DNA of 64,000 nucleotides from Acidobacteriota bacterium (GTDB lineage Bacteria; Acidobacteriota; Terriglobia; Bryobacterales; Bryobacteraceae). The position numbers and the translations under genes are program-made. The stretch lies in NCBI GenBank assembly GCA_018268835.1, contig JAFDVU010000006.1, positions 3,961 to 67,960 of the forward strand, given 5' to 3'. Below are positions 7,219-57,690 of the stretch, piece after piece (position 1 is the stretch's first letter; each line of letters opens with the position of its first letter). The notes beneath the pieces were generated by a model. That model searched no databases and was not told where the DNA came from. It was given only the letters and a program-made list of their open reading frames with translations.

Positions 7219-7863
7219 ATGAAGCGCCTGGCGATCCTCGTGCTGAGCGCGGCGGCGCTGGCCTCCGCGGCCGACCTCTCGGCGGTGCACAACGTGTACC
7301 TGCTGAAGATGTCGAAGGGGTTCGACCAGTATCTGGCCAACCGCCTGACGAACGGCAAAATATTCCAGGTGGTGACCGACCCCAAAATGGCGGACGCGAT
7401 CTTCACCGACCAGATTGGAGAGGGCTTCGAGGCGAAGCTGAAGGGACTGTTCCCGCCGCCGGAAGACGCCACGGCGGAGGCGTCGGACCAGGCCGGCGCG
7501 GCGGACCAGGGGGACAAGGCCGACAAAGGGGAGAAGGCCGACAAAGGGGACAAGGCCGGCAAAGGGGACAAGGCCGCGAAATCCGGCAAGGCGGCCAAGG
7601 CGGCCAAGGCTTCCGCCGACGCCGACGAAGACACCGGGGACTCCGCTCCCAGCCTGGTGACGGACACGGTGAACAAGCTGGACAACCCGGCGGTGAACTC
7701 CTCGTTTGGGCGCGCCAAGGGGATGGTGTTTATCGTGGACGCCAAGTCCAAGCAGGTCATCTGGTCGGCGTATGCGCTGCCGAAGAGCACGTCGTCGAGA
7801 GAATTGGACCGCACCGCCTCCGACATTGTAAGCCGCATCAAGCGCGACCTGAAGACGAAGTAG
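7219..7863 (+). CDS. Secreted hypothetical protein with a central GDKADK-type low-complexity repeat
   Basis: MKRLAILVLSAAALASAADL is a signal peptide (alternative ATG at 7210). The frame has strong GC3 bias. It is the only + strand gene inside the minus-strand GT cluster. The competing minus ORF 7155..7868 is S/A/L-rich junk. Confidence 0.75.
   Translation: MKRLAILVLSAAALASAADLSAVHNVYLLKMSKGFDQYLANRLTNGKIFQVVTDPKMADAIFTDQIGEGFEAKLKGLFPPPEDATAEASDQAGAADQGDKADKGEKADKGDKAGKGDKAAKSGKAAKAAKASADADEDTGDSAPSLVTDTVNKLDNPAVNSSFGRAKGMVFIVDAKSKQVIWSAYALPKSTSSRELDRTASDIVSRIKRDLKTK
7510..7581 (+). repeat. 4 x 18-bp tandem repeat (ggggaSaaggccgVSaaa) encoding (G-D/E-K-A-D/G/A-K)4
   Basis: Read directly: ggggacaaggccgacaaa / ggggagaaggccgacaaa / ggggacaaggccggcaaa / ggggacaaggccgcgaaa. 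The array lies in frame inside CDS 7219..7863. Confidence 0.9.
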
Positions 7864-16507: not shown

Positions 16508-16529
16508 CTCGCTACCCCGACTCGGAAGT

Positions 16530-18404: not shown

Positions 18405-18672
18405 GGTGTGGCTTCTTCGCTCAATGCCGCATAACGATCGATTCTATTCCACGGCCCTTGACGCGGGACTGGAGCGGAATCCGGCAATGTATTAAGCAAT
18501 ACAAGCGGTGGCGTGCCGAGTAAGTTGACTCGAAATCCCCGCCGCTCTCTCGCGATCAAGACCGATCCTGACTTTTGGGGGAGCGGGGCAGCGGCAGCAG
18601 CGACCTTGGCCGGATGGACGAAAACGAGCGGTGCCTACGGCTTCTGTCGTACGATTAGCGTAGGCACACCGA

Positions 18673-21762: not shown

Positions 21763-21840
21763 CGGGCCGTGGCGCAGCCTGGCTAGCGCGCTTGCTTGGG
21801 GTGCAAGAGGTCCCGAGTTCAAATCTCGGCGGCCCGACCA
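21763..21840 (+). tRNA. tRNA-Pro, anticodon GGG, CCA encoded
   Basis: Manual cloverleaf: acceptor cgggccg/cggcccg, D stem gcgc/gcgc, anticodon stem cttgc/gcaag with loop ttGGGgt, variable loop aggtc, T stem ccgag/ctcgg with loop ttcaaat, discriminator a, then cca. Total 78 nt. Confidence 0.9.
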
Positions 21841-21871
21841 AAAACCCCTCAATTTTCGCCTCTACGCCACA

Positions 21872-22871
21872 AATGGGGGCAGCCGGCGTCCCCGACCTCA
21901 CGAACACATTATCCTAACCCGCAACCGGTAGTTGTTGAAATTGCGGAATCCGTACGCTTGGCGTTGTAGCACCTCCATTTTCGTGTGGAAGCCTTCGGTG
22001 ATGCCGTTGTTCCTGGTGAAGCGCCACATCATCGCCAGTTCCGTCGCCCACGAAGACAGGGTGGATCCCAGCTGAACGAGCTGCGTCAGACCGGCGTTCT
22101 TCAGATCCTCGATGGCGCGAAGGAATCGATGGGCGAGGTGCTCGCAGTTTTTTCGTGTGCGATGCTTTTTCAACAGCAAGTGGCAAAGCCGCTGCTTGAA
22201 ACGGTAGATCTCGCGCAGGACGGGGAACTAGTCAAAGTACTGTTCGAGCTTGGCGCGTTGCTCGGGCTTGAGGTTGTGGCGGTGCCGCCGCATCAACAGA
22301 GGAGACCACGGTTCTTACCCCCCGCAGGGTCGATCTCCCGCCAACAGGCCAGGAAATGATGGTTGATCAGGCGGATGACGTGGAACCGGTCGGCGACGAT
22401 CTTGGCGTTGGGAAAATGCTTCCGCACGATGGCGCGATAAACGCTGGCCAAGTCCATGCAGACGATGCGCACGCGATCCTTGCCGGGGAGCTTCGCCAGG
22501 TAGTCTTCCAGTGCGGCTTCGCTGCGCCCCAGCACGACATCGCAGATGGTGTGGCTGCGGAGATCGCAGAAGGTGGTGGCGTAGTCCTTGCAGCGGAATT
22601 TCAAGCTCTCCACTTCCAGGATGCAGCCGCGCAAACCCCAGGATTCATGCCGGGGCTCGCGCAGGCGCTTGTCCTTGAGACGGAGGCGGTCGCTGCCGCA
22701 GTTCGGGCACACCCGGTCCCCCTCGTACCGGGCCGAGATCCGCACCATCCCCGATTCCTCTTGAATGCCTGTAACCTGATATCCAGGCAGGCCGAGCACT
22801 GCTTCTGATCTGATCAAACGTATTCTCCCAAGAACGTTTTATCAGGTCAGGGCCGCCGGTCTGCCCCCATT
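21872..22871 (-). mobile_element. Decayed ISL3-family insertion sequence (~1.0 kb, internally deleted)
   Basis: Imperfect terminal inverted repeats: 21872 AATGGGGGCAGCCGGCGTCCCCGACCT versus the reverse complement of 22844-22871, AATGGGGGCAGACCGGCGGCCCTGACCT. That is 25 matches over 28 aligned columns. The repeats enclose the broken transposase. I found no clear target-site duplication. Confidence 0.75.
21898..22817 (-). pseudogene. ISL3-family transposase pseudogene
   Basis: The N-terminal piece (22293..22817) has LGLPGYQVTGI ... CPNCGS zinc-finger ... FRCKDY. The C-terminal piece (21898..22179) has NNGITEGFHTKMEVLQRQAYGFRNFNNYRLRV. The pieces are separated by a frameshift near 22295 and an in-frame TAG (gac tag ttc) near 22230. 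Total coding is about 306 aa against about 400+ aa expected, so an internal deletion is also likely. Confidence 0.8.
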
Positions 22872-23553
22872 AACGATCTAGAGCCCAATTTTCCAGACAG
22901 ATAGCGGGAATCATATGAACTGGTCCCCCGTTTTGCCTTTCTCGTAAGGCTCTCCCAAGGATCAACGCCAAACTGGCGTGAAGGCATCGCGCGGTGTCGG
23001 AGCCCTGACCGCGCCCGGCAGGGCAAGGCTCCGGCCGTCCGGAGGCCCGGCGCTGGCTCAAGTTCTTGGGCGCAGGGCGGAAAGAGTCATCGATAACCCC
23101 AGTTACCGCCCCTCCATCGCACGCTGTGCGTGTGTCGAACCGCCGCCTACTTTTGTGGTGTCACGACGCGAAATGCCACTGGAGTAGAGCGAGCGACGGC
23201 AAACGGAGTCGGCAGTGCTGAAGAAGAACGCTCGGCCAGCGCTCCCAACTGAGGCTGCCCCGTTGTGAACGGCTGCGAGATCGCCGTCACAACGTAGTCC
23301 CCGGTTCGATCGGGCACACGCCCTTCCTCGGAGAGCGTCAATCCCAAGATGGGCACAACCTTCCCCTATGACTTTCGACAATTCGTACCGTTTGGCACCA
23401 ACAGCCTCTTCATTATGTTTGACAACGGCACCGCCAAATGATCGGATTGAACGAATTGATGCTGCGCCGACATACGGTTCGCCGGGTGACGCAAGGCCTG
23501 TCTAACCTCCTCTGCTGCGCCACATCTCCATATTGCACTCGAAGGGCCCCAAA

Positions 23554-26500
23554 ATGGTTAAAACGTCGGACTCGAAGGCCAGTCAAATCGTCCTTGAATC
23601 TCCCCAGGCTGGCCCGCAACTCCCGCCACTCAGGTATATCGGAATCCCCTTCCCCAGACCGATCGCTCAGGCGTGGGCGCCGGCATGGTTTTACAGCGCG
23701 CTGAACTGGCTGGGTAAGTCGTATTTCGATGCGAGTAATGTCCAACAGACATTCAGCTGGTACATGGCAGGATCGAGCGTCGATCCATATGCCCATCCGG
23801 GAGCGACACGCCTGTTCCTGGTGATTCTGGCCGGCGACACCTTCCGTCTTACCCTGGCAGCCGACGCAAATTCCACAGCGCCGGCGGCGGGAGGGAAGTC
23901 CTATCCGAACACGGATCAAGGCATCCTGGCGATGTATCAGGACCTGGCCGCCAGCCCGATCTTCTCCGCAGTGAAGTATTGCTACGTCCCCGGACGCATC
24001 GGCCCCGATCTCAATCCGAACACGTTCACCGGGATCGCCGCGGCCAGTGTCGCCACCGGGGAAATCCCCGCCGGCGGTTACGATCCCGGAACCGGCCTGC
24101 GGATCGCCGTCTTAGGTTCGGCCGTCTCCCAGGTGGTGCCTCTCGACGACTTTCTGAAGACGCGAAACGAGCAGATCTACAACGACGACCCGGTCATTGT
24201 GCCCATCGTCACCGCCTTGGTCTACGACGTGACCCAGTACAACACCGTCGGAGCCACAACCTTCGTCCTTCCCGTGTATTACACGCGCGACCAGGTGTCA
24301 GCGGGGAATTATTACGTCAGCAAGTTTGACGTGTCCACCTCGGTGAATGGACAAACGGTTCACTGCGGCCAGACCGCCGTCTTTCCGGGCGGTCCAGGAT
24401 TTAACGACTCGACCGCGAGCGCTCTGAAACTGGAGACAACCGCGGTAGTCGCCGGCGCAGGTCATAACTTCACCGTCTATACCTTCGATACGGCGAAGGT
24501 CGCCACGATCTCCACCCTGAGCCCGAAGGTGGAAACCGGCGTCATCATGTTGACCTATAATTCGCCGTCGCCGTCGAGCGTCTTCGCCAACCAGCGCATC
24601 ATCGGCTTCTACCGCGACAATTCCTGGACCACGTGCCTCGGCCAGCCCATCTACGACTTCGGAGCAAGCAACGCCAGTTTCACCGCTGCGACCGCGGCTT
24701 TCAGCGCGCCGGTCCTCCTCTACGATCCCACCCATCCCTTTCTCAACGGCGGTTCCCTGCAGAATGTGGTGCGGAAACTAGCGCAAGCCCCATACCTTTA
24801 TCCGACAGACCGGCTGGTTGCCATCCTCGATGCGGCTATCGCTGCCAGGGATACCGATAGCGGCGCGGGGTTAAGCGTCACCTCTGCGGCACTCAAGTTC
24901 AACATGAGTTCGACTCCGGCCGCACCGGTCGTCGATCAACTCTCGGTACCTGTTATGGTGACCGCGACCACCACTCCGGTACCCACCGACAGCATCAAAA
25001 GCAAAGCCGCGCCGGCCCCGCCTGCCAGCCTCAAGCCGGTTCCGGACCTGCCCTCGGCAGCGATCCTGCCCGGCGCCGTGGTGGATCACCCCCAGCAGAC
25101 CATCAGCGTCTCCGGACCGGGCGGCGCGAACCTCCAGATAATCGGGGGCGGCATCGTTTGGCCACCCCCGCCAGGCCCTGTCACGGTTCAGGCCGGACTC
25201 ACCGCATCTATTCCCCGCGAAGTTCTTGCCGGCACCGGCATCACGAGTGTCGAGATCGGAACCGCGTTCCCGCGGCAGAACCTCGGCTCCGGAGCCGTCT
25301 TCCAATCGCAGCCGGCGGGACGGGTGGTCAACCTCATGGAAAGCAGGGTGCCCGCTCTGCCGCCCTACGTTCTGAACCTCGCCAATGCGGGATTCGCTGT
25401 GAAGGAGGGCGTCTCCTATATCCTGTCGGTGACCGGCACCAGCCTGACCGTACGCGGCTCGGACGGTTCGTCCGCGTCAGCCGCGGTTGCCGCGCCCGGA
25501 TCGACCCACACCTACGTCGGAGCCATGGTGTACACGGCCGCAGTTACGGCCGTCCCGCTGTATCCGAAGCTCCCTCTGTCGCTCGCTGCGCCGGCCGTGG
25601 GCACCCATGGAGTTCTGCAGGGCGAACAGTACAGCGTCCGTCTGACGTTCGGCACAGACCAGAGCCGCTACGACATTCTGGATTCGAACCAGACGGCGGT
25701 CGATTCCAACATCGCCGTCCCCAACCCGGTGCCCGGCGATAAGTTCACGCCTCAGCCCGGCGACCTGTACTTCGGCAGCTTCATCGGCGGCTCGAACCAG
25801 ATGACGGTATGGTCCGTTCCGGTGTTCCTGACTGTGTCGCCGACCCTGTTGCCCGGTGCTGGCGTCGATGGAAACATGACGCTGGACGCGCAGGCCAGCG
25901 GACTCCCCGGGTACCAACTGCAGATCACCGACAGTTCGCTATTCATCTTCTCCAACGTCAACGTCGATACCGGAGCCACCGGCTCGCTCAGTCCCGCGAA
26001 CGTGTTTCTAGCCGCCGCGGTCATCAATTCCGCGCCGGACGACACCACCTCGAAGGCCTTCGCCCCGTGCAGGGTCGTGATGGGCCTCGTGCGTCAGGTC
26101 CAGATGGGGACCACGCTGAAGTACGTGTTCGTGCCTGAGGACGACAGCGTGGTCATCGGGCAAACGCGCTACATGCTGAGCGTGATCAACCTCGACAACA
26201 TGAGCGGCGACCCGAACACTCTTCCGTATCCGCCGGTCTACTGGCCGCAATCGCAGTACTGGCAGTTCGCCAATCGCCACAATCCGTACCTGGACGTCGA
26301 GTACGCAGGCGCCGACCAGACCGCGCGGATCAGCCGGGCGCAGACGGACACGGCCAGAATCGGCCTCGAAACGGCGCAGGCTCAGGAACCGATGCAGATG
26401 TACCTGGACACCGGCGCCGACGGGATGACGGTATGGCCGATCTATGCTTTTCCTTACGCCACATCCACCCAGACCATCGACCTGGGCCAGTTGAAGGCGA

Positions 26501-44313: not shown

Positions 44314-47019
44314 TCAGCGCTGCGGATTCTTCGGCAGGCTGATCAGGTTGGCGAAGATCCGGTAGGCGCCGGGCACACCTTCGGGCAGTTCGCGGTAAAA
44401 CGCGTATGCGTTGTAGACGTAGATCCCTTTGCCGTACCTGGCGTAGAGGAGGCCGCCCTTCTGCGGCTCCTGCCCTTCATCGTGGGTTTCGAGCAGCGCT
44501 TCGTAGTGCGGGTCCCAGGATTTCATCCACTTCGAGCCGCGTTCCTCTACCCAGCCGGTGAAATCCTTCTCGCTGATGCGGTTCGGCCACTTGAAGACTG
44601 GGTTCGACGGCGCCAGGATCTGCACCTTGGAAGCCTCGTCGGTGACCTCTTCCGGATTCGAGGTCATCGTGTAGGGATACGGGCCGAAGTTGTGATCGAA
44701 CTCCGGCGTGTTGTACTGCACGATAACGACACCGCCGTTCTTCACGTAGTCGAGCAGGCGGTTGTTGTACGTCGCCAACTCCGGGCGGGCGGCATAGGTA
44801 CGCACGCCGAGCAGAATCACGTCGTAGCGGCTGAGATCGCCGCTCGCAATATCAGCCGGCGCCAGAAAGCTCACTTTGATCCCCAGGTGTTCGAGCGAGT
44901 CCGGGACGTCATCGCCGCTTCCCATCACGTATCCGACCCGCAATCCGGACGCGACCTTTACGTCGACACCACTGGTCTTGTACGTGGACGACGTGTACAG
45001 GAAATAGGGCCGCAGTCCGCTGTAGCCGGTCACTTCGTAACCCTCGCGGTACTGCCGGCCTCCGAACTCGGCGACGGCCGTGATCGAGTACGGCTTCTCG
45101 CTCAGGTTGGCGGGAGTCACTGTGAAGGACAAGGCGAGATCCTCGCCGTCCTGTGTGGTAGAAAAGGGGATCGACGTCGGCTCCGACTTCCAGCCGGTGG
45201 GCAGATCGAGCCGCACGGTACCGGAGGCCGGACCTTTCACGTTGCTGTGAACCACTGTCTTCACCGCGAAGGTCTTCGCATCCAGCGGGACGATGCCGAA
45301 GCGGGGTGAAATCGAAATGCCGATCGTTGGAGCAACGACAAGGGGCTCCAGGACGGTTCCGAGGCCGTTCACGCGCTTCACCGTTTGCACGTACTGTCCG
45401 ATGCGAATGGGCGCGCCGTCGAAGCTCCAGTCCGCCCACGCCGCAATCGGGTACGGCGCGAGCGGCTGATTGAGGTAGCGCGCGTCGGTGATGTCGTAAT
45501 ACGACTGCTCGATATCGGGCCGGGTGAAGTACGGTCGTGTAAAGGCAACGTTATCCGGCACCTTTACGGTGAAGCGTGCATCCACCGGCTTGGCCGCGGC
45601 GTCCTCGGTTCGCTCCGCTGCCGCGGCAGGCGTGACCGTCCACGCTGGACCGTTGGTCGAGACCACGCTGAGCTTCTCCAGAACCGCGGGAGTGGTGCCC
45701 TGGTTGACCGCGTGGACCCTCACGCCGAATGTCTGCCCCGGAATCGCCACCCGGAAAGTCTCCGGGTCCCCGAGGAACTGCGCCATCCGCGGATTCGGCT
45801 CCTGATCGGGGGCCACAGACGCCGCGACCGAAAGTCCAAGCGATTGGGCGAGCGCACTGTTGAATTGGGTGCGTTTGATGTTCAGCTCATGGAGCAGGTC
45901 GTACTTCGAATCGTCAGAAAAGCTGCTCTTTTTCACGGCGGCGATGAGCGCGATCGTGTCCTTCATGCCTTGCGCCAGGGCGGGCGCGGAGCGTTCGGGA
46001 GCCGTGCCTGAGAACTTCGCGGTTGCGTCCTCCACGGCAGCGTTGATCCTGCGTAAGCCATCCGCCAGGAACGCGGAATCGCCGCCCTTCGCCAAGCCCA
46101 CAAGTCCCATCAAAGACGTATCGATCCCATCGAAGAAGTCCTTCTCCTTTTCCGGCACGGACACCGTGGAAGCGTACCGGTGATAGGTACTCGATACCTG
46201 TCCGGCCTTGGGGATGTTGGGACCGCCGTTTTGCGATTTCTGGTAGCCCAATCCCTGGCGGGAGATCTGCACGTAGGAAGCGCCCAGCATCGGATCGTAG
46301 CTGCCCTGGGGAACTTCCACGTTCACCGTGAGCGGGGCGCCGCCGGCCCTGGCGAAGAACGGTGCCCGCGCGTAGTCTTTTATGGGCGACCAGGGACGAA
46401 GGCCCTCACGAATCTGCTCCGGGAAAATGTTGGGATCGCCTGCCGCTCTGAACACGGCCTGCGCCATCGCGCCGGCGGTCTGGTGATTACCGTGACCATC
46501 GCTGGGACCGCCGACGAACACCGAGGTGATCACCAGCGGCCGGACCATGCGGACCACTCGCACCACGTCGGCGAGCACCCGGTCGCGGGTCCAGTGATTG
46601 ATCGATTCGGCCATGGTCTTCGAGAAGCCGTAGTCGACCACTCGCGTCCAGTATTGTTCCACGCCGTAGTAGCGGTCGGCAGCGAGCAACTCCTCGGTGC
46701 GGACGAGTCCGAGGGCGTCGAAGTAATCCGGCGACATGACGTTCGCGCCGCCCTCGCCACGGTTGAGGGTGAGCAGTGTGACGCGCGTTCCCTTGCCGCG
46801 CGATTCGTACGCGAGCATGCCGCCATCCTCATCGTCCGGATGAGCCGTAATCATGATCAGGCTGGCCCTGGTGTGGAGTTTCTTCAGGCTCTGCCAGAGC
46901 GCCGTGGATCCCCGGTTTGGCGGAATCTCCAGCGCCACCACGGACGGCTGGATGGAGGTGTCGTAAGGGGTCTGGGCAAAAACAGGTACGGCCAAGAGAA
47001 GGGCAAGAAGGAGTTTCAT
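44314..47019 (-). CDS. Secreted PIG-L/LmbE-family deacetylase domain protein (901 aa, multidomain)
   Basis: Signal peptide MKLLLALLLAVPVFAQ. IMITAHPDDEDGGMLAY ... VTLLTLNRGEGG ... HGNHQTAG are PIG-L zinc-site motifs. The C-terminal YDVILLGVRTYAARPEL ... NGGVVIVQYN resembles a ThuA/GATase-like fold. Confidence 0.8.
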   Translation of the reverse strand: MKLLLALLLAVPVFAQTPYDTSIQPSVVALEIPPNRGSTALWQSLKKLHTRASLIMITAHPDDEDGGMLAYESRGKGTRVTLLTLNRGEGGANVMSPDYFDALGLVRTEELLAADRYYGVEQYWTRVVDYGFSKTMAESINHWTRDRVLADVVRVVRMVRPLVITSVFVGGPSDGHGNHQTAGAMAQAVFRAAGDPNIFPEQIREGLRPWSPIKDYARAPFFARAGGAPLTVNVEVPQGSYDPMLGASYVQISRQGLGYQKSQNGGPNIPKAGQVSSTYHRYASTVSVPEKEKDFFDGIDTSLMGLVGLAKGGDSAFLADGLRRINAAVEDATAKFSGTAPERSAPALAQGMKDTIALIAAVKKSSFSDDSKYDLLHELNIKRTQFNSALAQSLGLSVAASVAPDQEPNPRMAQFLGDPETFRVAIPGQTFGVRVHAVNQGTTPAVLEKLSVVSTNGPAWTVTPAAAAERTEDAAAKPVDARFTVKVPDNVAFTRPYFTRPDIEQSYYDITDARYLNQPLAPYPIAAWADWSFDGAPIRIGQYVQTVKRVNGLGTVLEPLVVAPTIGISISPRFGIVPLDAKTFAVKTVVHSNVKGPASGTVRLDLPTGWKSEPTSIPFSTTQDGEDLALSFTVTPANLSEKPYSITAVAEFGGRQYREGYEVTGYSGLRPYFLYTSSTYKTSGVDVKVASGLRVGYVMGSGDDVPDSLEHLGIKVSFLAPADIASGDLSRYDVILLGVRTYAARPELATYNNRLLDYVKNGGVVIVQYNTPEFDHNFGPYPYTMTSNPEEVTDEASKVQILAPSNPVFKWPNRISEKDFTGWVEERGSKWMKSWDPHYEALLETHDEGQEPQKGGLLYARYGKGIYVYNAYAFYRELPEGVPGAYRIFANLISLPKNPQR

Positions 47020-47073
47020 AAATCGACCCTGCTGGTGGAGGCGGGCCGAAGCGAAACCGGCCCGCCTCGCCGT

Positions 47074-50000
47074 TCAGAAATACAACTTGAGGGCAAATTG
47101 AATCTCTCTCGGATCGGTCACGGTGCTGAACGTCTTTCCGAAAGAGCCGAGCGCCGAAGCTGCCACGCTGGCGTTCGGATTGTTGAAGTTCGCGTGATTC
47201 CACGCGTTGAAGAACTCCGTGCGGAACTCAACATTCCAGCTTTCACGGATCGGGAATCGCTTGAACAGGCTCAGGTCTACGTCCTGGATTCCGGGCCCGT
47301 GGAACGCGCGCGGCGCACAGGTCCCGAAGGTCCCGGTCGCCGGAATCGCGAACGCGGCCGGGTTGAGGAAAAAGCCGGTCGCGCCGCTCCCGACGAACTG
47401 CGAGCGGTCACTGGTCGCCCCGGAATACGGATCTCCGGTACAGTTGGCGCGGCTGGCGTGGCTGCCTCCGGTCTGGCTCACGTCGGGCGCCGTAACGGTG
47501 AACGGTGTGCCGGTTTCCATGGTGACGATCGTATTCAGTTGCCACCCGCCGATCATCCGGCTGGCCAGGCTGTTGTTGTTGAGCACGGCGCCACCCTTCC
47601 CAACCGGTAAATCCCACACCGCGTTCGCCACGAACCGCTGGGTTACATCGAAAGGTGAGTTGCTCCGCTCGAGGCTGTAGTTGTAGGCAGTCGCCGGAGT
47701 CGATCCGCCCGTCAGATTGTCGACATAGTCGGAGAAGTTGTGGCTCCAGGTATAGCTGACGCCGTAGGAGAGACGCTTGGAGAAGCGTCGCCGCAGCGAT
47801 ACCAGCAGGCCGTTGTAGTTGGTGTTCCCATCGTTGGTGGCCAGTTCCAGGAACGCGTGGTTGCCGCTGGTGGAGTTCAGCGTGCTGTTGAGGTTCGCGT
47901 AAGGGAATATTGTGATCGGCCGGCCGGCCGGATCGAAGCCCGTCACCAGTCCCTGGTTCGCATTGCGCAGGCGATTCATTTTGCGGCCGAAGTTGCCCAC
48001 GTAGGAGATCTCGAGCACGGTGCTCTCCGAGATCTCGAACTGCGGACCGAAACTGACCTGGTGAACGTAGCCGCTGCGCTCGTTGGGATCCTGTGCCCGC
48101 ACCTGGAGCTTGGTCAAATCCACCAGAGCCGGGGTGAACTGCGCGGACGGGAAGCCGCTCTTCAGCTGGAACGCGGGCGTCGTGCTGCCGAGCGTCTGCG
48201 ACAGCGACCCGTCGATCAGCCACGGAGGATTCAGCGCCAGCATGCTCTCCGACCCGATCCGCACGATGTGCTGGTAGAAGACGCCGTAGCCGCCGCGCAG
48301 CACTACTTTCTGCATCGGCTGCCAACTGAACCCGACCCGCGGTGCAAAGTCGTTCATGTCGGGGTGAACCAGTCCGCGCGAGTACCAGTCGCCTTCCTTG
48401 GCGGTTACGAATCCTCCGCCATTCGCAGGTGTGAAGTTCGAGAGTGCGTTCTGGTGGTTCAGGATCGGCGAGAACAGTTCGTACCGGAGGCCGTAAGTCA
48501 GGGTGAAGTTTCCGCTGACGCGCCAGATGTCCTGCGCGAAGAAGTTGTTCGAGTCCTGGTAATTGTGGACCACGGTCGGCGTCGTGAAGGCCGCTGTACT
48601 GATGTCACCGAGCAGGAAATCCGGCACGCCAAGTCCGCTGTTTCCGCTGTAGATTCCGCTTGCCGTAATCTGGCCCTGCGGCGACTGGATATCGAGGAAG
48701 TTGTCGCTCGTGTGCCGGTGCTCGTAGCCGAACTTGAGGCTGTGGTTGCCCTTGAGCCAGCTCAGCGTGTCCAGTAACTGCCACACCTGCGAAACCTGAA
48801 ACTGCGGCCGCCAGGGCGACGATCCCAGCCGCTGCAACCCGCTGATGTTGATGGGCGGGATGCCCGCATCGTTCGGTCCGGCGGGGATACCGGTGAGGCC
48901 GTACGTGCTCGCCTGCGACGTGCCGAGCGTCAGCCCGATGGGATCGCTGTGCGCGTAGTCGCGGCTGAAGCCGGCGCGAAGCTCATTCAGCATCGACGGC
49001 TTCACGATGTCGGTCCAGGCCAGGGCCAGGGATTTGCCGCGAATCCGGTACTGCGTGGCAAAGTTCCCGTTGCCCGCGATCGGGTCGCCGGTCCACGGCG
49101 GATCCTGGCGGTCCACCTGGTAGTCGCTGAAGCGTCCGAACAGCCGGCTGTTGGGAGTGAAGTTGTGATCGATGCGGGTGTCCCAGGAGAAGGTGTCGTT
49201 CGGAACCGAATACTGAAACTGGTAGTTCGGCGATCCGGTCCAACTGCCGGGTTGCCCCTGCCGCACCACCGCACCCGGGATGTTGGGGTTCGGGTACAAC
49301 GCCAGCAGCTTGGATCCGACCGGATCGATGCACGCAGGTGCGATGATGTTGCCGGTAATGCATCCGTTCTGGCTAGGGACGGTCGGATTTGCCAGGGCGG
49401 CCTTGAGTTCCGTGAAGTTACCCTGCTTCATCAACGGCGTCGGGACGGTCGTGTTCACGGTGGTCGCTTTCCGGCTGGTAAGGTCTTGCGCATCGAAGAA
49501 GAAAAATGTCCGGTTCTTGATGATCGGACCGCCGATTGTGCCGCCGAACTGGTTCTGGCTGAAGTGTCCGCGCGGAACGCCGCCGGCGTTGTTGAAAAAG
49601 CTGTTCGAATCGAACTTGTTGTTTCGGAGGAACTCCCAAACATCGCCGTGGATGGCGTTGGCCCCGCTCTTAATCGAGGCGTTGATCACGGCGCCCGCCG
49701 AGGTCCCGAATTCGGCGGAGTAGGTGCGGGTTTGCACGCGGAACTCCTGCAGCGCATCCGGCGGCGGTTGCACAGTCTGCACGGAGCCCTCCTGCAGGTT
49801 CGTGGAGCCCGAGTTGTTGTCGATGCCGTCCAGCGAGAAGTAGTTCTGCGTTTCCAGGTTGCCGTTCGAACTGAATCGGTCGGGCGCCTGGTTGTTGGGA
49901 TTCGTCACGTTCTTCTGCATCCCGGCTTCGAGCAACGCAAGGTCCGCATACCGGCGCCCGTTCAGCGGTAGGTCCTTAATCTGCTTCTCCTGGACCACGC

Positions 50001-50427
50001 CTCCCACATCCGCGGTTTGCGTCTGAAGAACGGTACCTGAGGCCTGCACCTCGACGGTCTCCGTGACTGCACCGACCTTCAGGCTGAAATCCACGGATGG
50101 TCTCGACTGCACATGCAGTTGAATGTCATTCTGAGCCTGCGATCCGAAGCCGGACGCCGTCACCCGAACCGAATAGGTCCCCGGCGGCAGCGCGGTGAAC
50201 TGATACTCACCGGCCTCGTTGGTGGTTGTGGTCCGCCTGACGCCGGTTGCCGAGTTCGTCAACTCGACCGTGGCCTTCGGCACCGCTCCTCCGCTTGCAT
50301 CTCGAACCGTTCCTACGATGGCGCCGGTATCGATCTGCGCGGCTCCTGGCTTCACCGCCAAACAAAGAAAAGCGAAAACGCTGAGTACCCGCACCATGGT
50401 CAGTACGGGCAAGTTCCTGATCGTCAT
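47074..50427 (-). CDS. TonB-dependent outer-membrane receptor with CarboxypepD_reg domain
   Basis: GTVRDASGGAVPKATVELTNSATGVRRTTTTNEAGEYQFTALPPGTYSVRV, then the plug QEKQIKDLPLNGRRYADLA. The C-terminal end is FALKLYF. It belongs to the same family as 18673..21672. Confidence 0.85.
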   Translation of the reverse strand: MTIRNLPVLTMVRVLSVFAFLCLAVKPGAAQIDTGAIVGTVRDASGGAVPKATVELTNSATGVRRTTTTNEAGEYQFTALPPGTYSVRVTASGFGSQAQNDIQLHVQSRPSVDFSLKVGAVTETVEVQASGTVLQTQTADVGGVVQEKQIKDLPLNGRRYADLALLEAGMQKNVTNPNNQAPDRFSSNGNLETQNYFSLDGIDNNSGSTNLQEGSVQTVQPPPDALQEFRVQTRTYSAEFGTSAGAVINASIKSGANAIHGDVWEFLRNNKFDSNSFFNNAGGVPRGHFSQNQFGGTIGGPIIKNRTFFFFDAQDLTSRKATTVNTTVPTPLMKQGNFTELKAALANPTVPSQNGCITGNIIAPACIDPVGSKLLALYPNPNIPGAVVRQGQPGSWTGSPNYQFQYSVPNDTFSWDTRIDHNFTPNSRLFGRFSDYQVDRQDPPWTGDPIAGNGNFATQYRIRGKSLALAWTDIVKPSMLNELRAGFSRDYAHSDPIGLTLGTSQASTYGLTGIPAGPNDAGIPPINISGLQRLGSSPWRPQFQVSQVWQLLDTLSWLKGNHSLKFGYEHRHTSDNFLDIQSPQGQITASGIYSGNSGLGVPDFLLGDISTAAFTTPTVVHNYQDSNNFFAQDIWRVSGNFTLTYGLRYELFSPILNHQNALSNFTPANGGGFVTAKEGDWYSRGLVHPDMNDFAPRVGFSWQPMQKVVLRGGYGVFYQHIVRIGSESMLALNPPWLIDGSLSQTLGSTTPAFQLKSGFPSAQFTPALVDLTKLQVRAQDPNERSGYVHQVSFGPQFEISESTVLEISYVGNFGRKMNRLRNANQGLVTGFDPAGRPITIFPYANLNSTLNSTSGNHAFLELATNDGNTNYNGLLVSLRRRFSKRLSYGVSYTWSHNFSDYVDNLTGGSTPATAYNYSLERSNSPFDVTQRFVANAVWDLPVGKGGAVLNNNSLASRMIGGWQLNTIVTMETGTPFTVTAPDVSQTGGSHASRANCTGDPYSGATSDRSQFVGSGATGFFLNPAAFAIPATGTFGTCAPRAFHGPGIQDVDLSLFKRFPIRESWNVEFRTEFFNAWNHANFNNPNASVAASALGSFGKTFSTVTDPREIQFALKLYF

Positions 50428-50532
50428 GGTTCCCCTCGCGATGCGCCGAATTATATCGCAGTCGGTGCGGATTGTGAAAAGAAAAGGTGCAAAATGTACA
50501 CTGATGGAGGAAGTGATTCAGATCTACCGTCG

Positions 50533-52335
50533 ATGTCGACAATGAAGCGCACCCGCCGCAGTCTGCTCCGCCTGCTGCCGTTCCTCTCCTGCCGGCTCTC
50601 GGGACAGGGGATGGCGACTCGCGGGGTAAGGCCTGCACCACGCGGTAAGCCTTCTGGCCTGCCGTTTCGCGCGAAGTTTACCGACGTTGCCCGGGCGGCC
50701 GGTCTGCGTGAGCCGGTGATCTGCGGCGAGGTCGATCACAAGACGTACATCCTCGAGACCATCGGCTGCGGCGCTGCCTTCTTCGACTACGACAACGACG
50801 GCTGGCTAGACGTCCTCATTTTGAGCGGCACGCGACTTTCGGGTTCGTCCGCGACCAATCGCCTGTATAAGAACAATCGGGATGGAACCTTCACCGATGT
50901 CACCGAGAAGGCCGGCCTTCATCGCTCGGGATGGGCCTCCGCAGTGACGGTCGGCGACTATAACAACGACGGCTTCGACGACCTCTTCATCACGGGATAC
51001 GGCCACAATGTTCTCTACCGGAACAACGGTGACGGAACCTTCACCGATGTCACCAAAGGGGCCGGCCTGCTGCACGACAAGCCTCGTTGGGGCTCCGGCT
51101 GTACCTTTCTCGACTACGACCGCAACGGTCTTCTCGATCTCTTCATTGCCAGCTATGTGGACTTCGACCTGCAGACCGCGCCGAAACCGGGAAGCGAGTC
51201 CTACTGCAACTGGAACGGAATCCCGGTCCACTGCGGCCCGCGTGGGCTTCCCACCGGCACGCCGATGCTCTATCGGAATAACGGCGACGACACGTTTACG
51301 GACGTCAGCGTCGCCTCGGGTGTGGCGAAGTCGACGGGCAGCTACATGATGACCGCGGTAGCCGCGGATTTCGATAACGACGGCTGGCCTGACATCTATG
51401 TCGCCTGCGACTCAACGCCTAGCTTTCTGTTTCGCAACAATCGGGACGGCACCTTCACCGAAACCGGAATGATCCGGGGCGTAGCGCTGAGCGAGGACGG
51501 CAATCCGCAGGCCGGCATGGGCCTGGGAATCGGCGACTACAATCTCGACGGTAGCCTCGACATCCTCAAGACGCACTTCTCGGACGACACCAGCATCCTG
51601 TTCCGCAACGACGGCAGGGGTTCGTTCGATGGCGTGACTGAGATGACTGGACTCGGGGTGGAAACGCGCTTCGTCGGCTGGGGCGCCGGTATGACGGACC
51701 TGGACAACGACGGCCTGCCCGATCTGCTGATCGTGACGGGTGGCGTATTTCCGGAAGTCGCGCGCCAGTTGCCGCGCTACCCGATGGAGACTCCGCGCGT
51801 AGTTTTTCGGAATCTGGGCAGCGGCAGGTTCGAGGAGTTGATCGACGAAGCAGGACCGGGAATTACGGCACCTCACTGCAGCCGCGGATGCGCCTTCGGT
51901 GATTTCGATAATGATGGCGACGTGGACGTGCTGGTCGTAAACCTGAACGAGCCACCCTCGTTGCTGCGCAACGACGTGACAGGCGGAAACCACTGGCTGA
52001 AAGTGAAGCTGATCGGCGTCAAGTCGAACCGCAGCGCCATCGGAGCCCGCGTCACGGTGCGCTATGGGGACCGCGTGCAGGCCCAGGAGGTGCTGAGTCA
52101 GGCGAGTTTCTACTCAGTGAACGACTTCCGGCTTCATTTCGGTCTCGGCCTAGCGGAGCGGGTGGACCTGGAAATTCGTTGGCCCAGCGGGACGAAGGAA
52201 TCGATCGCAAAGGTCGCGGCCGACCGGCTGATCGTGATCCGGGAAGGCGAAGGGATCGTTCGAACGGAAAGGTTCGGCGGGAACGCCCAAGCTAGAGTCG
52301 GCGACCAAACGAGTGTGACCAGGTTCAGGAAGTAA
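50533..52335 (+). CDS. CRTAC1/ASPIC-UnbV family protein with FG-GAP/VCBS-type repeats
   Basis: Internal ATG at 50533 or 50542 (MSTMKRTRRSLLRLLPF, Tat/Sec-like). FDYDNDGWLDVL, GDYNNDGFDDLF, DFDNDGWPDIY, DLDNDGLPDLL and DFDNDGDVDVL are repeat units. The C-terminal UnbV-like part includes IGARVTVRYGDRVQAQEV. Confidence 0.85.
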   Translation: MSTMKRTRRSLLRLLPFLSCRLSGQGMATRGVRPAPRGKPSGLPFRAKFTDVARAAGLREPVICGEVDHKTYILETIGCGAAFFDYDNDGWLDVLILSGTRLSGSSATNRLYKNNRDGTFTDVTEKAGLHRSGWASAVTVGDYNNDGFDDLFITGYGHNVLYRNNGDGTFTDVTKGAGLLHDKPRWGSGCTFLDYDRNGLLDLFIASYVDFDLQTAPKPGSESYCNWNGIPVHCGPRGLPTGTPMLYRNNGDDTFTDVSVASGVAKSTGSYMMTAVAADFDNDGWPDIYVACDSTPSFLFRNNRDGTFTETGMIRGVALSEDGNPQAGMGLGIGDYNLDGSLDILKTHFSDDTSILFRNDGRGSFDGVTEMTGLGVETRFVGWGAGMTDLDNDGLPDLLIVTGGVFPEVARQLPRYPMETPRVVFRNLGSGRFEELIDEAGPGITAPHCSRGCAFGDFDNDGDVDVLVVNLNEPPSLLRNDVTGGNHWLKVKLIGVKSNRSAIGARVTVRYGDRVQAQEVLSQASFYSVNDFRLHFGLGLAERVDLEIRWPSGTKESIAKVAADRLIVIREGEGIVRTERFGGNAQARVGDQTSVTRFRK

Positions 52336-52586
52336 CCAGGTCGGACCGGACCAGCCAGAGCGGGCCGTCACGGGGCGAACGAGATGGACGACGGTGAGTC
52401 TGACGTTCCATTCTCGCGTTGGAGTCTCAGCCTGCGGATCGGCATAGTCCAGCGAACCCCTCGAGTCGGCAGTAGAGGGAGTGCACAACTTGATGCGAAT
52501 TTCAAATGACTGACCACAGCAAAGCAACCGTAGGAGAACCACACGGACGCCGGGGGAGAGTCAATCCTGTCGAGCCTGAGTTTTCC

Positions 52587-52645
52587 CCCGCACAATCCCG
52601 CAGAATTCTCAAAAGGCGCGAAAATCCCGCACAATTCCCGCGAAT
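52587..52645 (+). repeat. Cluster A of a 10-bp motif CCCGCRNAAT (4 units, two tandem pairs)
   Basis: cccgcacaat (52587), cccgcagaat (52597), cccgcacaat (52626), cccgcgaat (52637). The cluster ends 66 bp before the tRNA-fragment repeat. Confidence 0.85.
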
Positions 52646-52711
52646 GAAAAACCCTGTCCCGCGCGTAAGTATCTGAGAATCAACACCCACACACGCCAAG
52701 GGGCCCCCTGG

Positions 52712-52762
52712 GCTTGCTTGGGGTGCAAGAGGTCCCGGGTTCAAATCTCGGCGGCCCGACCA
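52712..52762 (+). repeat. 51-nt direct copy of the 3' half of tRNA-Pro(GGG) (att-like)
   Basis: 52712-52762 equals 21790-21840 (anticodon stem through CCA) with a single difference (a at 21816 versus g at 52738). The upstream sequence has no matching acceptor or D arm, so it is not a tRNA gene. Confidence 0.9.
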
Positions 52763-52844
52763 TCTTTTCAACGCATTATAAAAGGGCGCCCCTTTCGAGG
52801 TAGGCTTTGAGCGTCGAACTCAGCCCACGGAAAGGAGCACCCTT

Positions 52845-53912
52845 ATGGACAGCAAGAAGTATATTGGCATGGACGTCCATCAGGCAACCGTCTCGATTGC
52901 CGTTATGGATTCGGGCGGCAAGGTGGTGATGGACTCGGTAATCGAAACCAAGGCGGCTACCATCCTGGGGTTCATCCAGGGAGTGCGCGGAACGCTATCG
53001 GTGACATTCGAGGAAGGTACCAGTACGGCCTGGCTGTACGACCTCTTGAAACCGCACGTCACCAAGGTGGTGGTTTGCGATCCGCGAAAAAACGCGCTCC
53101 TGAAGGCCGGCAACAAGAATGATCGAATCGATGCCCGCAAGCTCGCCGACTTGTTGCGGAGCGGACTCCTCTCGCCGGTCTACCACGGAGGGGCGGGCGT
53201 ACGTACGCTGAAAGAACTGGCGCGCAGCTACCTGACAATCACGAAGGATCTGACGCGGGTGAGGAATCGGATCAAGGGCATGTATCGAAGCTGGGCCATT
53301 CCCTGTGCCGGTCAAAAGGTGTATTCTCCGCGGTACCGCAGTGCGTGGTTGACGCAACTGACGGAAGTGGGGGTGCGGCGCCGGGCGGAGTGGTTGTATC
53401 GACAACTGGACGATCTGCAACCACTACGCCGAGAAGCGCGGCAACAGCTGCTGGCAGAGAGCCACAAGCACCCCGCGCACACTGTGCTCCGCCAGGTTCC
53501 CTGGCTGGGCCCGATCCGGGTTGCCCTCCTGATTGCGTTGATTCAGACACCACATCGGTTCCGGACCAAACGGCAACTCTGGGCATACAGTGGGTTGGCC
53601 CTGCAGACGCGAGTCAGCGGCGAATATCGCATGACGGACGGCCAACTGCAGCGTGCCAAGAGACAGCCGTCCCTGCGCGGTCTCAATCAGAATCACAACC
53701 ATGAGCTGAAAGCTCTGTTCAAGAGCACCGCCACGCGGGCCAGCACCGCGGCCGGCCCTTTCGGAGACTTCTATGCCGCCTTGCTGGCCACGGGGATGAG
53801 GCCTACGATGGCCCGTCTGACCGTGGCCCGCAAGATCGCGGCCATCGTTTTGACCATTTGGAAGAAAGGAGAGCCGTTCGATCCACAACAGCTGAAACGG
53901 CAAGCAGCTTGA
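52845..53912 (+). CDS. IS110-family (DEDD) transposase
   Basis: AAGGAG lies 7 nt before the ATG. YIGMDVHQATVSIAVMD is the N-terminal DEDD start. NKNDRIDARKLADLL is present. The C-terminal Transposase_20-like part is WAYSGLALQTRVSG ... ARLTVARKIAAIVLTIWKKGEPFD. Element ends were not defined. Confidence 0.85.
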   Translation: MDSKKYIGMDVHQATVSIAVMDSGGKVVMDSVIETKAATILGFIQGVRGTLSVTFEEGTSTAWLYDLLKPHVTKVVVCDPRKNALLKAGNKNDRIDARKLADLLRSGLLSPVYHGGAGVRTLKELARSYLTITKDLTRVRNRIKGMYRSWAIPCAGQKVYSPRYRSAWLTQLTEVGVRRRAEWLYRQLDDLQPLRREARQQLLAESHKHPAHTVLRQVPWLGPIRVALLIALIQTPHRFRTKRQLWAYSGLALQTRVSGEYRMTDGQLQRAKRQPSLRGLNQNHNHELKALFKSTATRASTAAGPFGDFYAALLATGMRPTMARLTVARKIAAIVLTIWKKGEPFDPQQLKRQAA

Positions 53913-54193
53913 GTGTCTGAGCAGAGCCGATACCACCCCAGGGTCTTCCTGCCGCTGGCCTGTCGGATTTGCCAAACGCTCGGGTTCGAGGGCGAGTATC
54001 TATTAAGTTGTTAGGCGCAGGGTGTGCACTTATGCACCGAGTCTCTGTTTCAATCGTATGCCCCCTCGGACAACCCAAGAAAGCCATAGGCCCCGAGCCT
54101 CAAATAGAATCATGGTTGGCACCCTCCATCCGCATTGCTTGTTGCGTTTCAGGATTCGACGCGCCGCGCTCCCTTTCCCTCTTGCCATCCTCG

Positions 54194-54268
54194 CAGAACG
54201 GTCCTCGCCGTCAAGGTTTCGCTCCGCCGCGCCTGTCGGCGCGCCCTTGACGGCTCCGGGCCGTTCTG
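54194..54268 (+). other. Three-tier imperfect hairpin in non-coding DNA 3' of the IS110 transposase gene
   Basis: cagaacgg/ccgttctg (8 bp), gccgtcaagg/ccttgacggc (10 bp), and an inner cgcgcc-tgtc-ggcgcg (6 bp, tetraloop). Read directly from the sequence; function unknown. Confidence 0.6.
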
Positions 54269-54514
54269 ACGAACACTTCCTGACAAGAGGGAAAGTCAGG
54301 AACTAAACCGAGCCGCGCATGCCGGCCTCCCGTTGGTCGGCCACCGGCTCCCAGGACCCTCGAGATGGAAAACACCGCTCCGCCACAGCCGCCTCGATCG
54401 AGCCCAGGGGCTGAATGCCAGCCACTCCCGCCAGGCTTTCAGCCCGGTGGGGGAATATTTCTCTTGACATTCCCTTTTATAGAATAACTTAGACACCACA
54501 GACCCCAATTTCAT

Positions 54515-54544
54515 CCCGCATTATCCCGCACAATCCCGCACAAT
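54515..54544 (+). repeat. Cluster B of the same 10-bp motif (3 perfect-phase tandem units)
   Basis: cccgcattat / cccgcacaat / cccgcacaat, in the same orientation as cluster A. The cluster overlaps the stop of the integrase-like remnant. Confidence 0.85.
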
Positions 54545-54805
54545 TTTGAAGGAAGCAACTGTCGGGCCCTTCTTCTCCTGCGAGCCGAAGAGCCGTTCCT
54601 GCACACGACGCACTGCCTGCTCGCGACGCGTCAACGCAATCACCGTGATCGACATCATCGGAATGCGCAATTGAGACACAGAATCGACAACCGCCCCGGT
54701 TTCACAAGATCCGAAATGGGTGTGCCTGTGCTCTGCTGAAACAGGGGATAACGTTGCCAGGATAGAAGCCGCTGGCGAACGGCCCGTCTGGAACCCACGG
54801 TTCAC
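54521..54805 (-). pseudogene. Probable C-terminal remnant of a tyrosine recombinase/integrase
   Basis: AEHRHTHFGSCETGAVVDSVSQLRIPMMSITVIAL aligns by eye to box II, H-x-L-R-H-T-[FS]-x-S ... aG ... v ... LGH-x-S-I-x-x-T. The N-terminal ~250 aa are missing (the TA module occupies that space), and the catalytic Tyr is not evident. Confidence 0.45.
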
Positions 54806-54942: not shown

Positions 54943-55398
54943 ATGCCGCATGAACCTGTCACCTTGCCCGAATCGGAGGAAGGGCAGATCCGGGAGCTGA
55001 ACCGAATGCTCCAACTCGGGACGCCGGCACTGGTCGGTGCCGATGGCGAGCGCGTAGAGTTGCCGGATTCCGTTTTCCGACTCTTGAAGGACATCGCGCG
55101 CAACATGCAGTTGGGGCGAGCGGTTGTCCTCATCCCGGAAAACCAGCAACTGACGACGCAACGATCTGCCGACCTGCTCGGCGTCTCCCGGCCTCACCTG
55201 ATCAAGCTCCTCGAAGCAGGAGAACTGCCCTACCACAAGGCCGGCAGCCATCGCCGCATTTACCTAAAGGATCTGCTCGCTTACCAGAAACGTCGCAACG
55301 CGGAGCGCAAGGCCGCTCTGGACCGCATCGCGAAGGAGGCATTCGAGTCCGGCCTGTACGATCGGACAGGCACTCCCGAAGACGGCGAAGACGAATGA
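54943..55398 (+). CDS. Antitoxin-like DNA-binding protein (excisionase/MerR-type HTH)
   Basis: TTQRSADLLGVSRPHLIKLLEAGELPYHKAGSHRRIYLKDLLAY is an HTH_17-like motif. GGAGG lies upstream. There is a 4-nt ATGA overlap with the PIN gene. Confidence 0.75.
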   Translation: MPHEPVTLPESEEGQIRELNRMLQLGTPALVGADGERVELPDSVFRLLKDIARNMQLGRAVVLIPENQQLTTQRSADLLGVSRPHLIKLLEAGELPYHKAGSHRRIYLKDLLAYQKRRNAERKAALDRIAKEAFESGLYDRTGTPEDGEDE

Positions 55399-55982
55399 GA
55401 GCCGATTACCGCGTCGTGCTCGACGCGTGCGTCCTCATCCCGATGCCTCTTGCCGACACGCTGCTGCGCATGGCGGAGGCGCCGCGGTTGTACTTGCCCC
55501 AGTGGACGCAAACCATTATGGATGAGGTGACACGCAACCTCATCGCCAAATGGGGAATGCCGGCCGATAAGGCGCAGCGCCGCGAGCAAGAGATACGTCG
55601 CCACTTCCCTGAGGCGTGGGTGGAGGGCTTTGAGCCGCTCATCGAGACGATGACCAACGATGCCGGAGACCGCCATGTCCTCGCCGCGGCCGTGCGTTCC
55701 CGCTCGGATTTGATCGTCACCTACAATCGCCGTCATTTCCCGCCCGAGTCGATGCAGACCTGGGAGATCGAGGTAGAAGGACCATCCGCTTTCCTGCGTG
55801 GCCTCCACGATCTGGACGCAGGCTTGTTCGTCACCAAGTTGCACGAGCAGGCGGGCGCGATTGGAGTGCCGCTCCAACGGTTGCTTCGCAGCCTCGCTAA
55901 GAGTGTGCCCGGTTTTGTCAGCTACTTCTGTGAGGAACAGGGGATCGACCTCGGCGAAGACGAGCGAGGTGCCTCGCGGTGA
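55395..55982 (+). CDS. PIN-domain toxin-like protein
   Basis: VVLDACVLIP (first acidic residue), NDAGDRHVLAAAV and DLIVTYNRRHF follow the PIN acidic-residue pattern. The gene is translationally coupled to the HTH gene. Confidence 0.7.
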   Translation: MRADYRVVLDACVLIPMPLADTLLRMAEAPRLYLPQWTQTIMDEVTRNLIAKWGMPADKAQRREQEIRRHFPEAWVEGFEPLIETMTNDAGDRHVLAAAVRSRSDLIVTYNRRHFPPESMQTWEIEVEGPSAFLRGLHDLDAGLFVTKLHEQAGAIGVPLQRLLRSLAKSVPGFVSYFCEEQGIDLGEDERGASR

Positions 55983-57469: not shown

Positions 57470-57690
57470 GTGCGTGGGCAACCGCGCGCGAGGGTAGAAC
57501 GAGTGTGGAGTCGGCGCATCCTGACTTTAGAGGAGACTGCGCGCGTGCTGGCCCGGATGGAGGAGCCCAACAAACTCATCCTCGAAACCTGCATCGCTAC
57601 CGGCGCGCGCATCTCCGAGGTCCTCGGCCTGCAGTGGAAGGCGTGAACCTGGATGCCGGGACAGGCAAGGCGTGCATACCGGCAAGCCCG
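57470..57690 (+). pseudogene. Tyrosine-integrase fragment (box I region), frameshifted and truncated
   Basis: My translation: RRILTLEETARVLARMEEPNKLILETCIATGARISEVLGLQWKA*, continuing in another frame as VNLDAGTGKA. This is the classic TG-x-R-ISE-x-LGL-x-W-x-x-[VI]-[DN] catalytic-Arg block. There is no N-terminal or C-terminal remainder. Confidence 0.65.

Follow-up and report, generated by a model that had tools for sequence, protein, structure and literature searches.

Does the 30.9-kb interval between an intact tRNA gene and a displaced copy of its 3' half represent a mobile island, and how could it have come to lie there? We examined this question in a 64-kb stretch of an Acidobacteriota contig (64,000 nt, hereafter the window), whose interval carries a giant gene and a block of conserved genes. 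ARAGORN found a single tRNA gene in the window, an intact tRNA-Pro(GGG), and a repeat finder showed that its last 51 nt recur on the same strand 30,922 nt further on, with 50 of the 51 positions identical (98%); the sole mismatch is A at 21816 versus G at 52738. A scan of the window with the 51-mer at up to three mismatches returned these two copies only, and no copy appeared in 100 dinucleotide-preserving shuffles of the window, which rules out a chance origin of the repeat. The second copy lacks the acceptor and D arms, and the 5' 27 nt of the tRNA were not found a second time in the window at up to six mismatches. The repeat with its one mismatch and the truncation of the second copy had both been described in the original prediction, and both were confirmed. 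The variable position is A in all 112 genome loci that contain the 51-mer; thus, the G variant belongs to the displaced copy, where it turns a T-stem A-T pair into G-T, as read from the sequence. Rfam gave no matches between 52300 and 54960, partial tRNA included.

The repeated block extends from raw tRNA position 28, which precedes the anticodon stem by one base, to the CCA end. Its start coincides with the canonical crossover subsite of the anticodon class defined for Islander islands, in which anticodon-centered attP sites account for 2083 of 3919 islands (PMC4383910). A scan of genomes with the 51-mer, keeping one genome per species, yielded 112 loci, nearly all titled Bryobacterales, Bryobacteraceae, Solibacteraceae or Terriglobia (one contig was binned as Verrucomicrobiia); comparison loci in other genomes and metagenome contigs are labeled L001-L125. 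Extra 3' fragments of 43 to 54 nt were present in six genomes (L009, L047 with two, L059, L082, L112 and L014), and all seven start within the anticodon stem-loop. A PF00589 integrase gene lies 60 to 90 nt past tRNA-Pro on the opposite strand in L044, L066, L100 and L110, and other occupants of this position elsewhere are a ParB/methylase gene, a restriction-modification methylase and ISL3 copies. The DNA downstream of tRNA-Pro was different in nearly every one of the 112 loci. Because the downstream DNA varies, 3' fragments recur and integrase genes adjoin, tRNA-Pro(GGG) is an integration hot spot in Bryobacterales. These results support the view that the repeat is an att signature, left where a tyrosine integrase recombined DNA at the anticodon-loop subsite of tRNA-Pro, and the fragment at 52712-52762 is very probably an integrase-made att relic.

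Further observations were made at this site in other genomes. In L112, only ~155 nt separate tRNA-Pro from a 45-nt fragment (oriented 2092-2292), and this spacer holds TGTAGA repeats, which also follow the tRNA in L001, L030, L082 and L087; TGTAGA is a second family of arm repeats, and L112 is a near-complete element deletion. One metagenome-assembled genome (MAG) contains a 54-nt fragment in the middle of a 600-kb contig (L014), with a flank ~85% like that of the intact tRNA-Pro on another contig (L093). Because L014 and L093 sit on separate contigs, orphan fragments far from the tRNA gene do exist. In most genomes, the motif CTCAAAGACTTACAGAC is found in the first ~25 nt after tRNA-Pro, and element-derived flanks imitate it as TTTTCAATAACTTAGAC; the motif is either att identity extending past the tRNA or a conserved tRNA 3'-processing/terminator signal. 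A scan of viral contigs for the core returned one contig that IMG/VR classes as viral, in which the core lies beside a syntenic tRNA-Pro, with neither an integrase match nor homology to the interval.

We then compared the DNA to the right of the fragment, which continues with TCTTTTCAA, the start of the flank of a putative older element (hereafter element B). Nine nt past the fragment, an IS110-family insertion sequence (IS) interrupts the flank at a dinucleotide, AA, found at each of its two junctions, and the open reading frame (ORF) 83 nt past the fragment encodes its transposase according to Pfam, not an integrase. In the metagenome contig L120, an intact tRNA-Pro is followed by TCTTTTCAATAACTTAGAC and then by an opposite-strand integrase C-terminal domain (PF00589), and window positions 52712-52771 (98%) and 54483-54647 (88%) match this contig as one uninterrupted stretch. 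Because the site in L120 is uninterrupted, the segment 52772-54482 is the IS110 element, which is a secondary insertion. In L012, L060, L073 and L106, intact tRNA-Pro has this flank next to it with no IS; the possibility that IS110 made or carried the fragment was therefore rejected. At the place and on the strand of the L120 integrase, all that is left in the window is the final ~20 codons of a tyrosine integrase gene (relic 1), and the fragment with its right flank is the former tRNA/integrase junction (attL) of element B. A second integrase relic, about 3 kb further right and in the opposite orientation, matches residues ~225-270 of the integrases of L066 and L094. The far end of element B would be marked by a third copy of the 3' end of the tRNA; a search of both strands of the window with the last 20 to 30 nt at four to seven mismatches found none.

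The region right of the element B left end also contains a weak PRiA4_ORF3-like fragment and an HTH_17/PIN pair. The pair recurs ~210 nt after intact tRNA-Pro in the non-syntenic loci L041 and L102, with the HTH protein 78 to 82% identical in amino acids, and it looks like a toxin-antitoxin-like module that may travel with elements at tRNA-Pro. Within the IS110 element, 73 nt precede the transposase gene and ~570 nt follow it, with no Rfam match; this long 3' non-coding stretch could encode a guide (bridge/seek-type) RNA. Look-ups of the exact IS110 transposase and radical-SAM proteins, aimed at sequence of the source contig outside the window, returned nothing.

Short repeats surround the fragment on both sides. 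The left TCCCGC cluster has four copies in 62 nt, 55 to 115 nt left of the fragment, and the right cluster lies 40 to 70 nt right of the fragment when IS110 is removed; the consensus of the repeat is AATCCCGCACAAT. Clusters of at least three TCCCGC within 80 nt were found only at these two places on both strands of the window. In 2000 uniform placements, any cluster of three within 80 nt arose in 6.7% and of four within 100 nt in 0.2%. TCCCGC also follows tRNA-Pro elsewhere, in two or three copies in L012, L060 and L106 and in two copies in L120. The left cluster may represent candidate P-arm protein-binding sites and the right cluster a candidate P' arm; the layout around the fragment without IS110 would then be P arm, core, P' arm and integrase, as expected between tandem elements. 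The att relic, the element B junction and this arm layout suggest that the 30.9 kb is wedged between the tRNA and an older decayed element.

On balance, we favor the explanation that serial site-specific integration at a single hot spot (tandem accretion) left the two tRNA 3' copies behind as att sites. In the first step of this model, a tyrosine-integrase element B would have integrated at the anticodon-loop subsite of tRNA-Pro(GGG), with its integrase gene on the opposite strand, ~60 nt past the tRNA. Next, recombination between the regenerated tRNA and a second circle that carried the same 51-nt core would have brought in a new 3' half, pushing the old 3' half and element B 30.9 kb away and giving the junction P arm, core, P' arm and integrase. 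During the subsequent decay, the element B integrase would have been cut to ~20 codons and the interval left with no recombination genes, ISL3 would have landed 9 nt past the tRNA and IS110 9 nt past the fragment, and the displaced copy would have gained its one substitution. The present interval is best described as an integrase-less, att-flanked segment in a tandem array, resembling a cis-mobilizable element (CIME). Such a segment could move only with a matching integrase supplied in trans.

At the tRNA-proximal end, the sequence from 21841, directly after tRNA-Pro, starts with AAAACCCCTCAATTTTC. A decayed ISL3-family IS, with the transposase in two pieces with an internal deletion and imperfect terminal inverted repeats, sits between the perfect copies of an 8-bp target duplication, CAATTTTC, at 21850-21857 and 22886-22893. 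This relic is a secondary insertion 9 nt past tRNA-Pro, and it did not delete the tRNA junction because the target duplication is intact. When the relic is removed, the flank reads AAAACCCCTCAATTTTCCAGACAGATAGCGGG and resembles the flank of L054, where the neighbor is an N6 DNA methylase gene, with 76% identity over 75 nt. At least three other genomes (L021, L025 and L056) also have ISL3 elements or their ends within ~20 to 90 nt after tRNA-Pro, which suggests that ISL3 prefers the AT-rich stretch after tRNA-Pro.

Between these ends lie the giant ORF and, to its right, the conserved gene block, and here the two parts behave differently. The giant protein is rich in T, V, A, G and S, has few charged residues and no internal repeats, and gave no Pfam domain in either half. 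Its first 1400 residues have 27 homologs among 5.8 billion proteins; full-length counterparts of the gene occur in L121 and L122 (~70 to 72% nucleotide identity) among unrelated genes, with no tRNA found within 10 kb, and every homolog examined had a different context. The giant gene is a rare accessory gene. By contrast with its patchy distribution, the block is conserved across the order: its genes, in the succession receptor, PIG-L, TPR protein, permease, kinase and GH4, are colinear at 77 to 82% nucleotide identity in L115, L116/L117, L118 and L119, and in L115 the colinearity extends to the CRTAC1-like region. The neighbors of the block differ in each of the four distinct relatives' loci and never include tRNA-Pro, whereas the left flank of the window keeps more than 10 kb of synteny in relatives. 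These changing neighbors of the block and the accessory nature of the giant gene speak for the tandem-accretion model. The longest-ORF starts of GH4 and of the CRTAC1-like gene are probably too far upstream. In L115 (4270-4754), the 12.8-kb block starts ~400 nt downstream of a tRNA-Arg(ACG); a short ORF beside that tRNA, read as a P4-type primase fragment, had no Pfam match and was not relied on.

Several results on the interval and its surroundings weigh against an acquired island. We searched for integrases with Pfam on the ORFs of the interval and with tblastn using 10 candidate proteins encoded beside tRNA-Pro elsewhere, three of which were confirmed as integrases by Pfam. No integrase, integrase relic, excisionase, conjugation or phage gene was found in 21841-52711 by these searches, nor an integrase relic by Pfam on small ORFs at the two non-coding ends, and the integrase-gene filter of Islander (PMC4383910) would reject the interval. 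The TCCCGC array is absent from the tRNA-proximal flank; for the interval to have started out as a B-type element, its left end must have been replaced. The PIG-L protein is 70 to 90% identical across more than 120 protein clusters. Identity is 77 to 82% at the nucleotide level between the block and its nearest relatives and 76 to 84% between the flank and its own; because block and flank diverge from their relatives to about the same extent, nothing points to a distant donor. Tetranucleotide correlations are 0.81 to 0.89 between the block and the left flank and 0.74 between the two halves of the left flank, and the GC content of the block, 0.60 to 0.64, is only ~3 to 4 points lower than that of the left flank, 0.65 to 0.68. 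In composition, by which an island would stand out, the block is thus like its flanks; in phyletic distribution, only the giant gene is patchy.

The relatives that share the left flank add to this count. In L113, with a receptor of 86% identity, and in L125, the upstream synteny is kept and tRNA-Pro is absent after the receptor gene; in L114, tRNA-Pro is followed by a ParB/methylase element, and in L123, by unrelated genes. None of these four loci had homology to window positions 21.8 to 64 kb within 10 kb, nor was a syntenic empty-site allele, with tRNA-Pro joined to the sequence right of 52762, found among them. L120 has the uninterrupted tRNA/element B junction, but its sequence upstream of the tRNA is not syntenic, and the window itself comes from a single contig, 77,450 nt long, of an NCBI metagenome-assembled Acidobacteria genome. 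Because the upstream genes are conserved while the downstream DNA differs in every relative, tRNA-Pro is a synteny breakpoint. The left flank also has a 624-residue gene with GH42 and TIG matches (16508-18618, minus strand) and a GC3 of 0.72. L113, L114, L123 and L125 are otherwise colinear with the window at this point but lack the gene, which is a second lineage-specific insertion. The glycosyltransferase-rich part of the left flank also has an 18-nt tandem repeat of about six units, GGCCGACAAAGGGGACAA, within an ORF at 7482-7589.

That the full 30.9 kb arrived as one mobile island we therefore consider somewhat doubtful; our confidence was lowered because the interval has no recombination genes and looks native. 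The original prediction had proposed an integrated island carrying the giant gene, with GH4, kinase, permease, PIG-L deacetylase, TonB-dependent receptor and CRTAC1-like genes as cargo and no intact integrase. Pfam confirmed the cargo, and Pfam and tblastn bore out the absence of an intact integrase. The att signature agrees with the proposed island, but the missing integrase, the flank-like tetranucleotides and the colinearity of the block elsewhere do not. Its second option, that the fragment belongs to the decayed element on the right, fits the right flank, but the left flank of the fragment also has element-type arm repeats. Two of the checks that it had named were an empty allele in related genomes and the composition of the interval. 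The syntenic relatives examined all differ downstream of the tRNA and showed no empty allele, and the k-mer and GC profiles set the interval apart from the flanks only by the small GC difference given above.

Among the other explanations, the one that survives best, which we nonetheless regard as unlikely, is that there is no 30.9-kb island and that resident chromosome follows an unrecombined tRNA-Pro; the P-core-P'-integrase structure would then be a junction resembling an attP, derived from one or two B-type elements and displaced by rearrangement or a non-canonical insertion. The composition and gene content of the interior look native, the intact tRNA has a flank like the class found after most intact tRNA-Pro genes and after the L082 distal fragment, a class that is probably native, and element-type repeats lie on both sides of the fragment, as in an intact attP. 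The tRNA-Pro gene is, moreover, a synteny breakpoint in the clade, and the 54-nt fragment of L014 is in the middle of a 600-kb contig, with the intact L093 tRNA on another contig. However, this explanation needs the coincidence that the junction came to lie in the same orientation and 30.9 kb from one natural target in a multi-megabase genome, and it needs a break of the element within ~375 nt of the core, where no IS marks the boundary. It thereby takes more events than tandem integration, which yields P-core-P' directly.

It is also conceivable, if distinctly improbable, that a recombinase-less segment composed of the orphan giant gene and the highly conserved sugar-utilization/receptor block is moved in trans by tRNA-Pro-specific integrases of its neighbors. 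If this were true, core-like blocks and giant genes would circulate in Bryobacterales as integrase-less cargo that shares a hot spot, which would explain why the block is conserved in sequence yet differently placed in every genome.

Still less probable is an assembly artefact, in which sequences of two strain variants were joined through the common tRNA sequence; in one variant the interval would end in P arm, core and native flank, and in the other the tRNA would be followed by element B. The source is a MAG contig, and different elements occupy the site in related populations; however, the A/G mismatch limits the exact common stretches to 26 and 24 nt, which is below usual assembly word lengths, and the G variant occurs in the fragment alone, which is what a displaced copy without function would be expected to show within a single genome. 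We give the least credence to the idea that the fragment remains from a second, independent tRNA-Pro(GGG) gene right of the CRTAC1-like gene, used by element B before its 5' half was lost: SMAG_U14823 does have two complete tRNA-Pro(GGG) loci (L050 and L092), so that duplicates may exist, but all other listed MAGs except MFD02248.bin.2.12 (L014 and L093) have a single locus, the left edge of the fragment is at the anticodon stem as in integrase-made fragments elsewhere, an arm-repeat array rather than a deletion scar lies on its left, and no trace of a 5' half is present in the window.

The tandem-integration model was also compared with known systems. The locus resembles Islander-type tDNA islands (PMC4383910) in having a regenerated tDNA at one end and a displaced direct 3' fragment at the other, an anticodon-stem-to-CCA block, a length within the usual range and a hot-spot target with integrases in relatives; it differs in that the interval has no integrase gene or relic and that its cargo is largely a conserved block of native composition. 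As summarized in PMC5704250, tandem accretion of ICESt1-related CIMEs in Streptococcus thermophilus (Pavlovic 2004; Bellanger 2011) involves an incoming element that integrates beside a decayed resident, with a functional integrase present. With the CIMEs of that account, the interval shares flanking att sites, the lack of integration and transfer genes, a tandem position at the 3' end of the target gene and a hybrid att between the partners; here, unlike there, both partners are decayed, and the integrase-less member is tRNA-proximal and would be the younger. A CIME retains both attL and attR, and the interval has both, as 51-nt copies identical at 50 of 51 positions. As for descent from an integrative and conjugative or integrative and mobilizable element, the right end has B-type arm repeats, the left end lacks them, and a related functional element was not found. 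The IS110 and ISL3 families each contribute one element to the first AT-rich stretch after a tRNA 3' copy; the ISL3 element has its typical 8-bp duplication, and the IS110 element lacks terminal inverted repeats and has a dinucleotide common to both junctions. Both are secondary passengers, and neither made the 51-nt repeat.

Table 1. Positions of the features of the window, from left to right, with the evidence for each
Feature	Position	Strand	Evidence
Intact tRNA-Pro(GGG)	21763-21840	+	ARAGORN
Repeat copy 1, last 51 nt of tRNA-Pro	21790-21840	+	Repeat finder
Decayed ISL3-family IS	21858-22885	-	Pfam DDE_Tnp_ISL3, Zn_ribbon_ISL3
Gene-free stretch, ~640 nt	22894-23532		Recognizable gene or relic absent (Pfam on small ORFs)
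Giant ORF, 5297 codons, ATG at 23554	23533-39426	+	Pfam domain absent
Conserved gene block, 12.8 kb	39527-52335		Pfam; colinear in relatives
GH4	In block	-	Pfam
PfkB kinase	In block	-	Pfam
Amino-acid permease	In block	-	Pfam
TPR protein	In block	+	Pfam
PIG-L deacetylase	44314-47019	-	Pfam
TonB-dependent receptor	47074-50427	-	Pfam
FG-GAP/ASPIC CRTAC1-like gene	50113-52335	+	Pfam
Four TCCCGC (52596, 52625, 52636, 52657) and one degenerate copy	52592-52667	+	Hexamer scan
Repeat copy 2, displaced 3' fragment of tRNA-Pro	52712-52762	+	Repeat finder, G at 52738
IS110-family IS, 1711 bp (transposase 52845-53912)	52772-54482	+	Pfam DEDD_Tnp_IS110, Transposase_20
Left end of putative element B	54483-54647	-	88% to L120
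Three TCCCGC, exact 10-nt spacing (54514, 54524, 54534)	In 54483-54647	Same as left cluster	
Integrase relic 1, last ~20 codons of tyrosine integrase	54587-54646	-	tblastn; same place and strand as L120
HTH_17 protein and PIN-domain protein	54943-55982	+	Pfam
Integrase relic 2	57506-57643	+	tblastn E 1e-7, Pfam PF00589 E 1.7e-4

The finding is a classical signature of a known kind, and its integrase-less, core-like content is unusual. For annotation, this means that the repeat alone is insufficient to call the giant gene and the sugar block horizontally acquired. The att cores, the arm repeats and the junction sequences can now be used as search queries in reads. For the biology of the group, these results show that tRNA-Pro(GGG) is both a frequent target of integration and a point where synteny breaks across Bryobacterales; few mobile elements have been described in this soil group.

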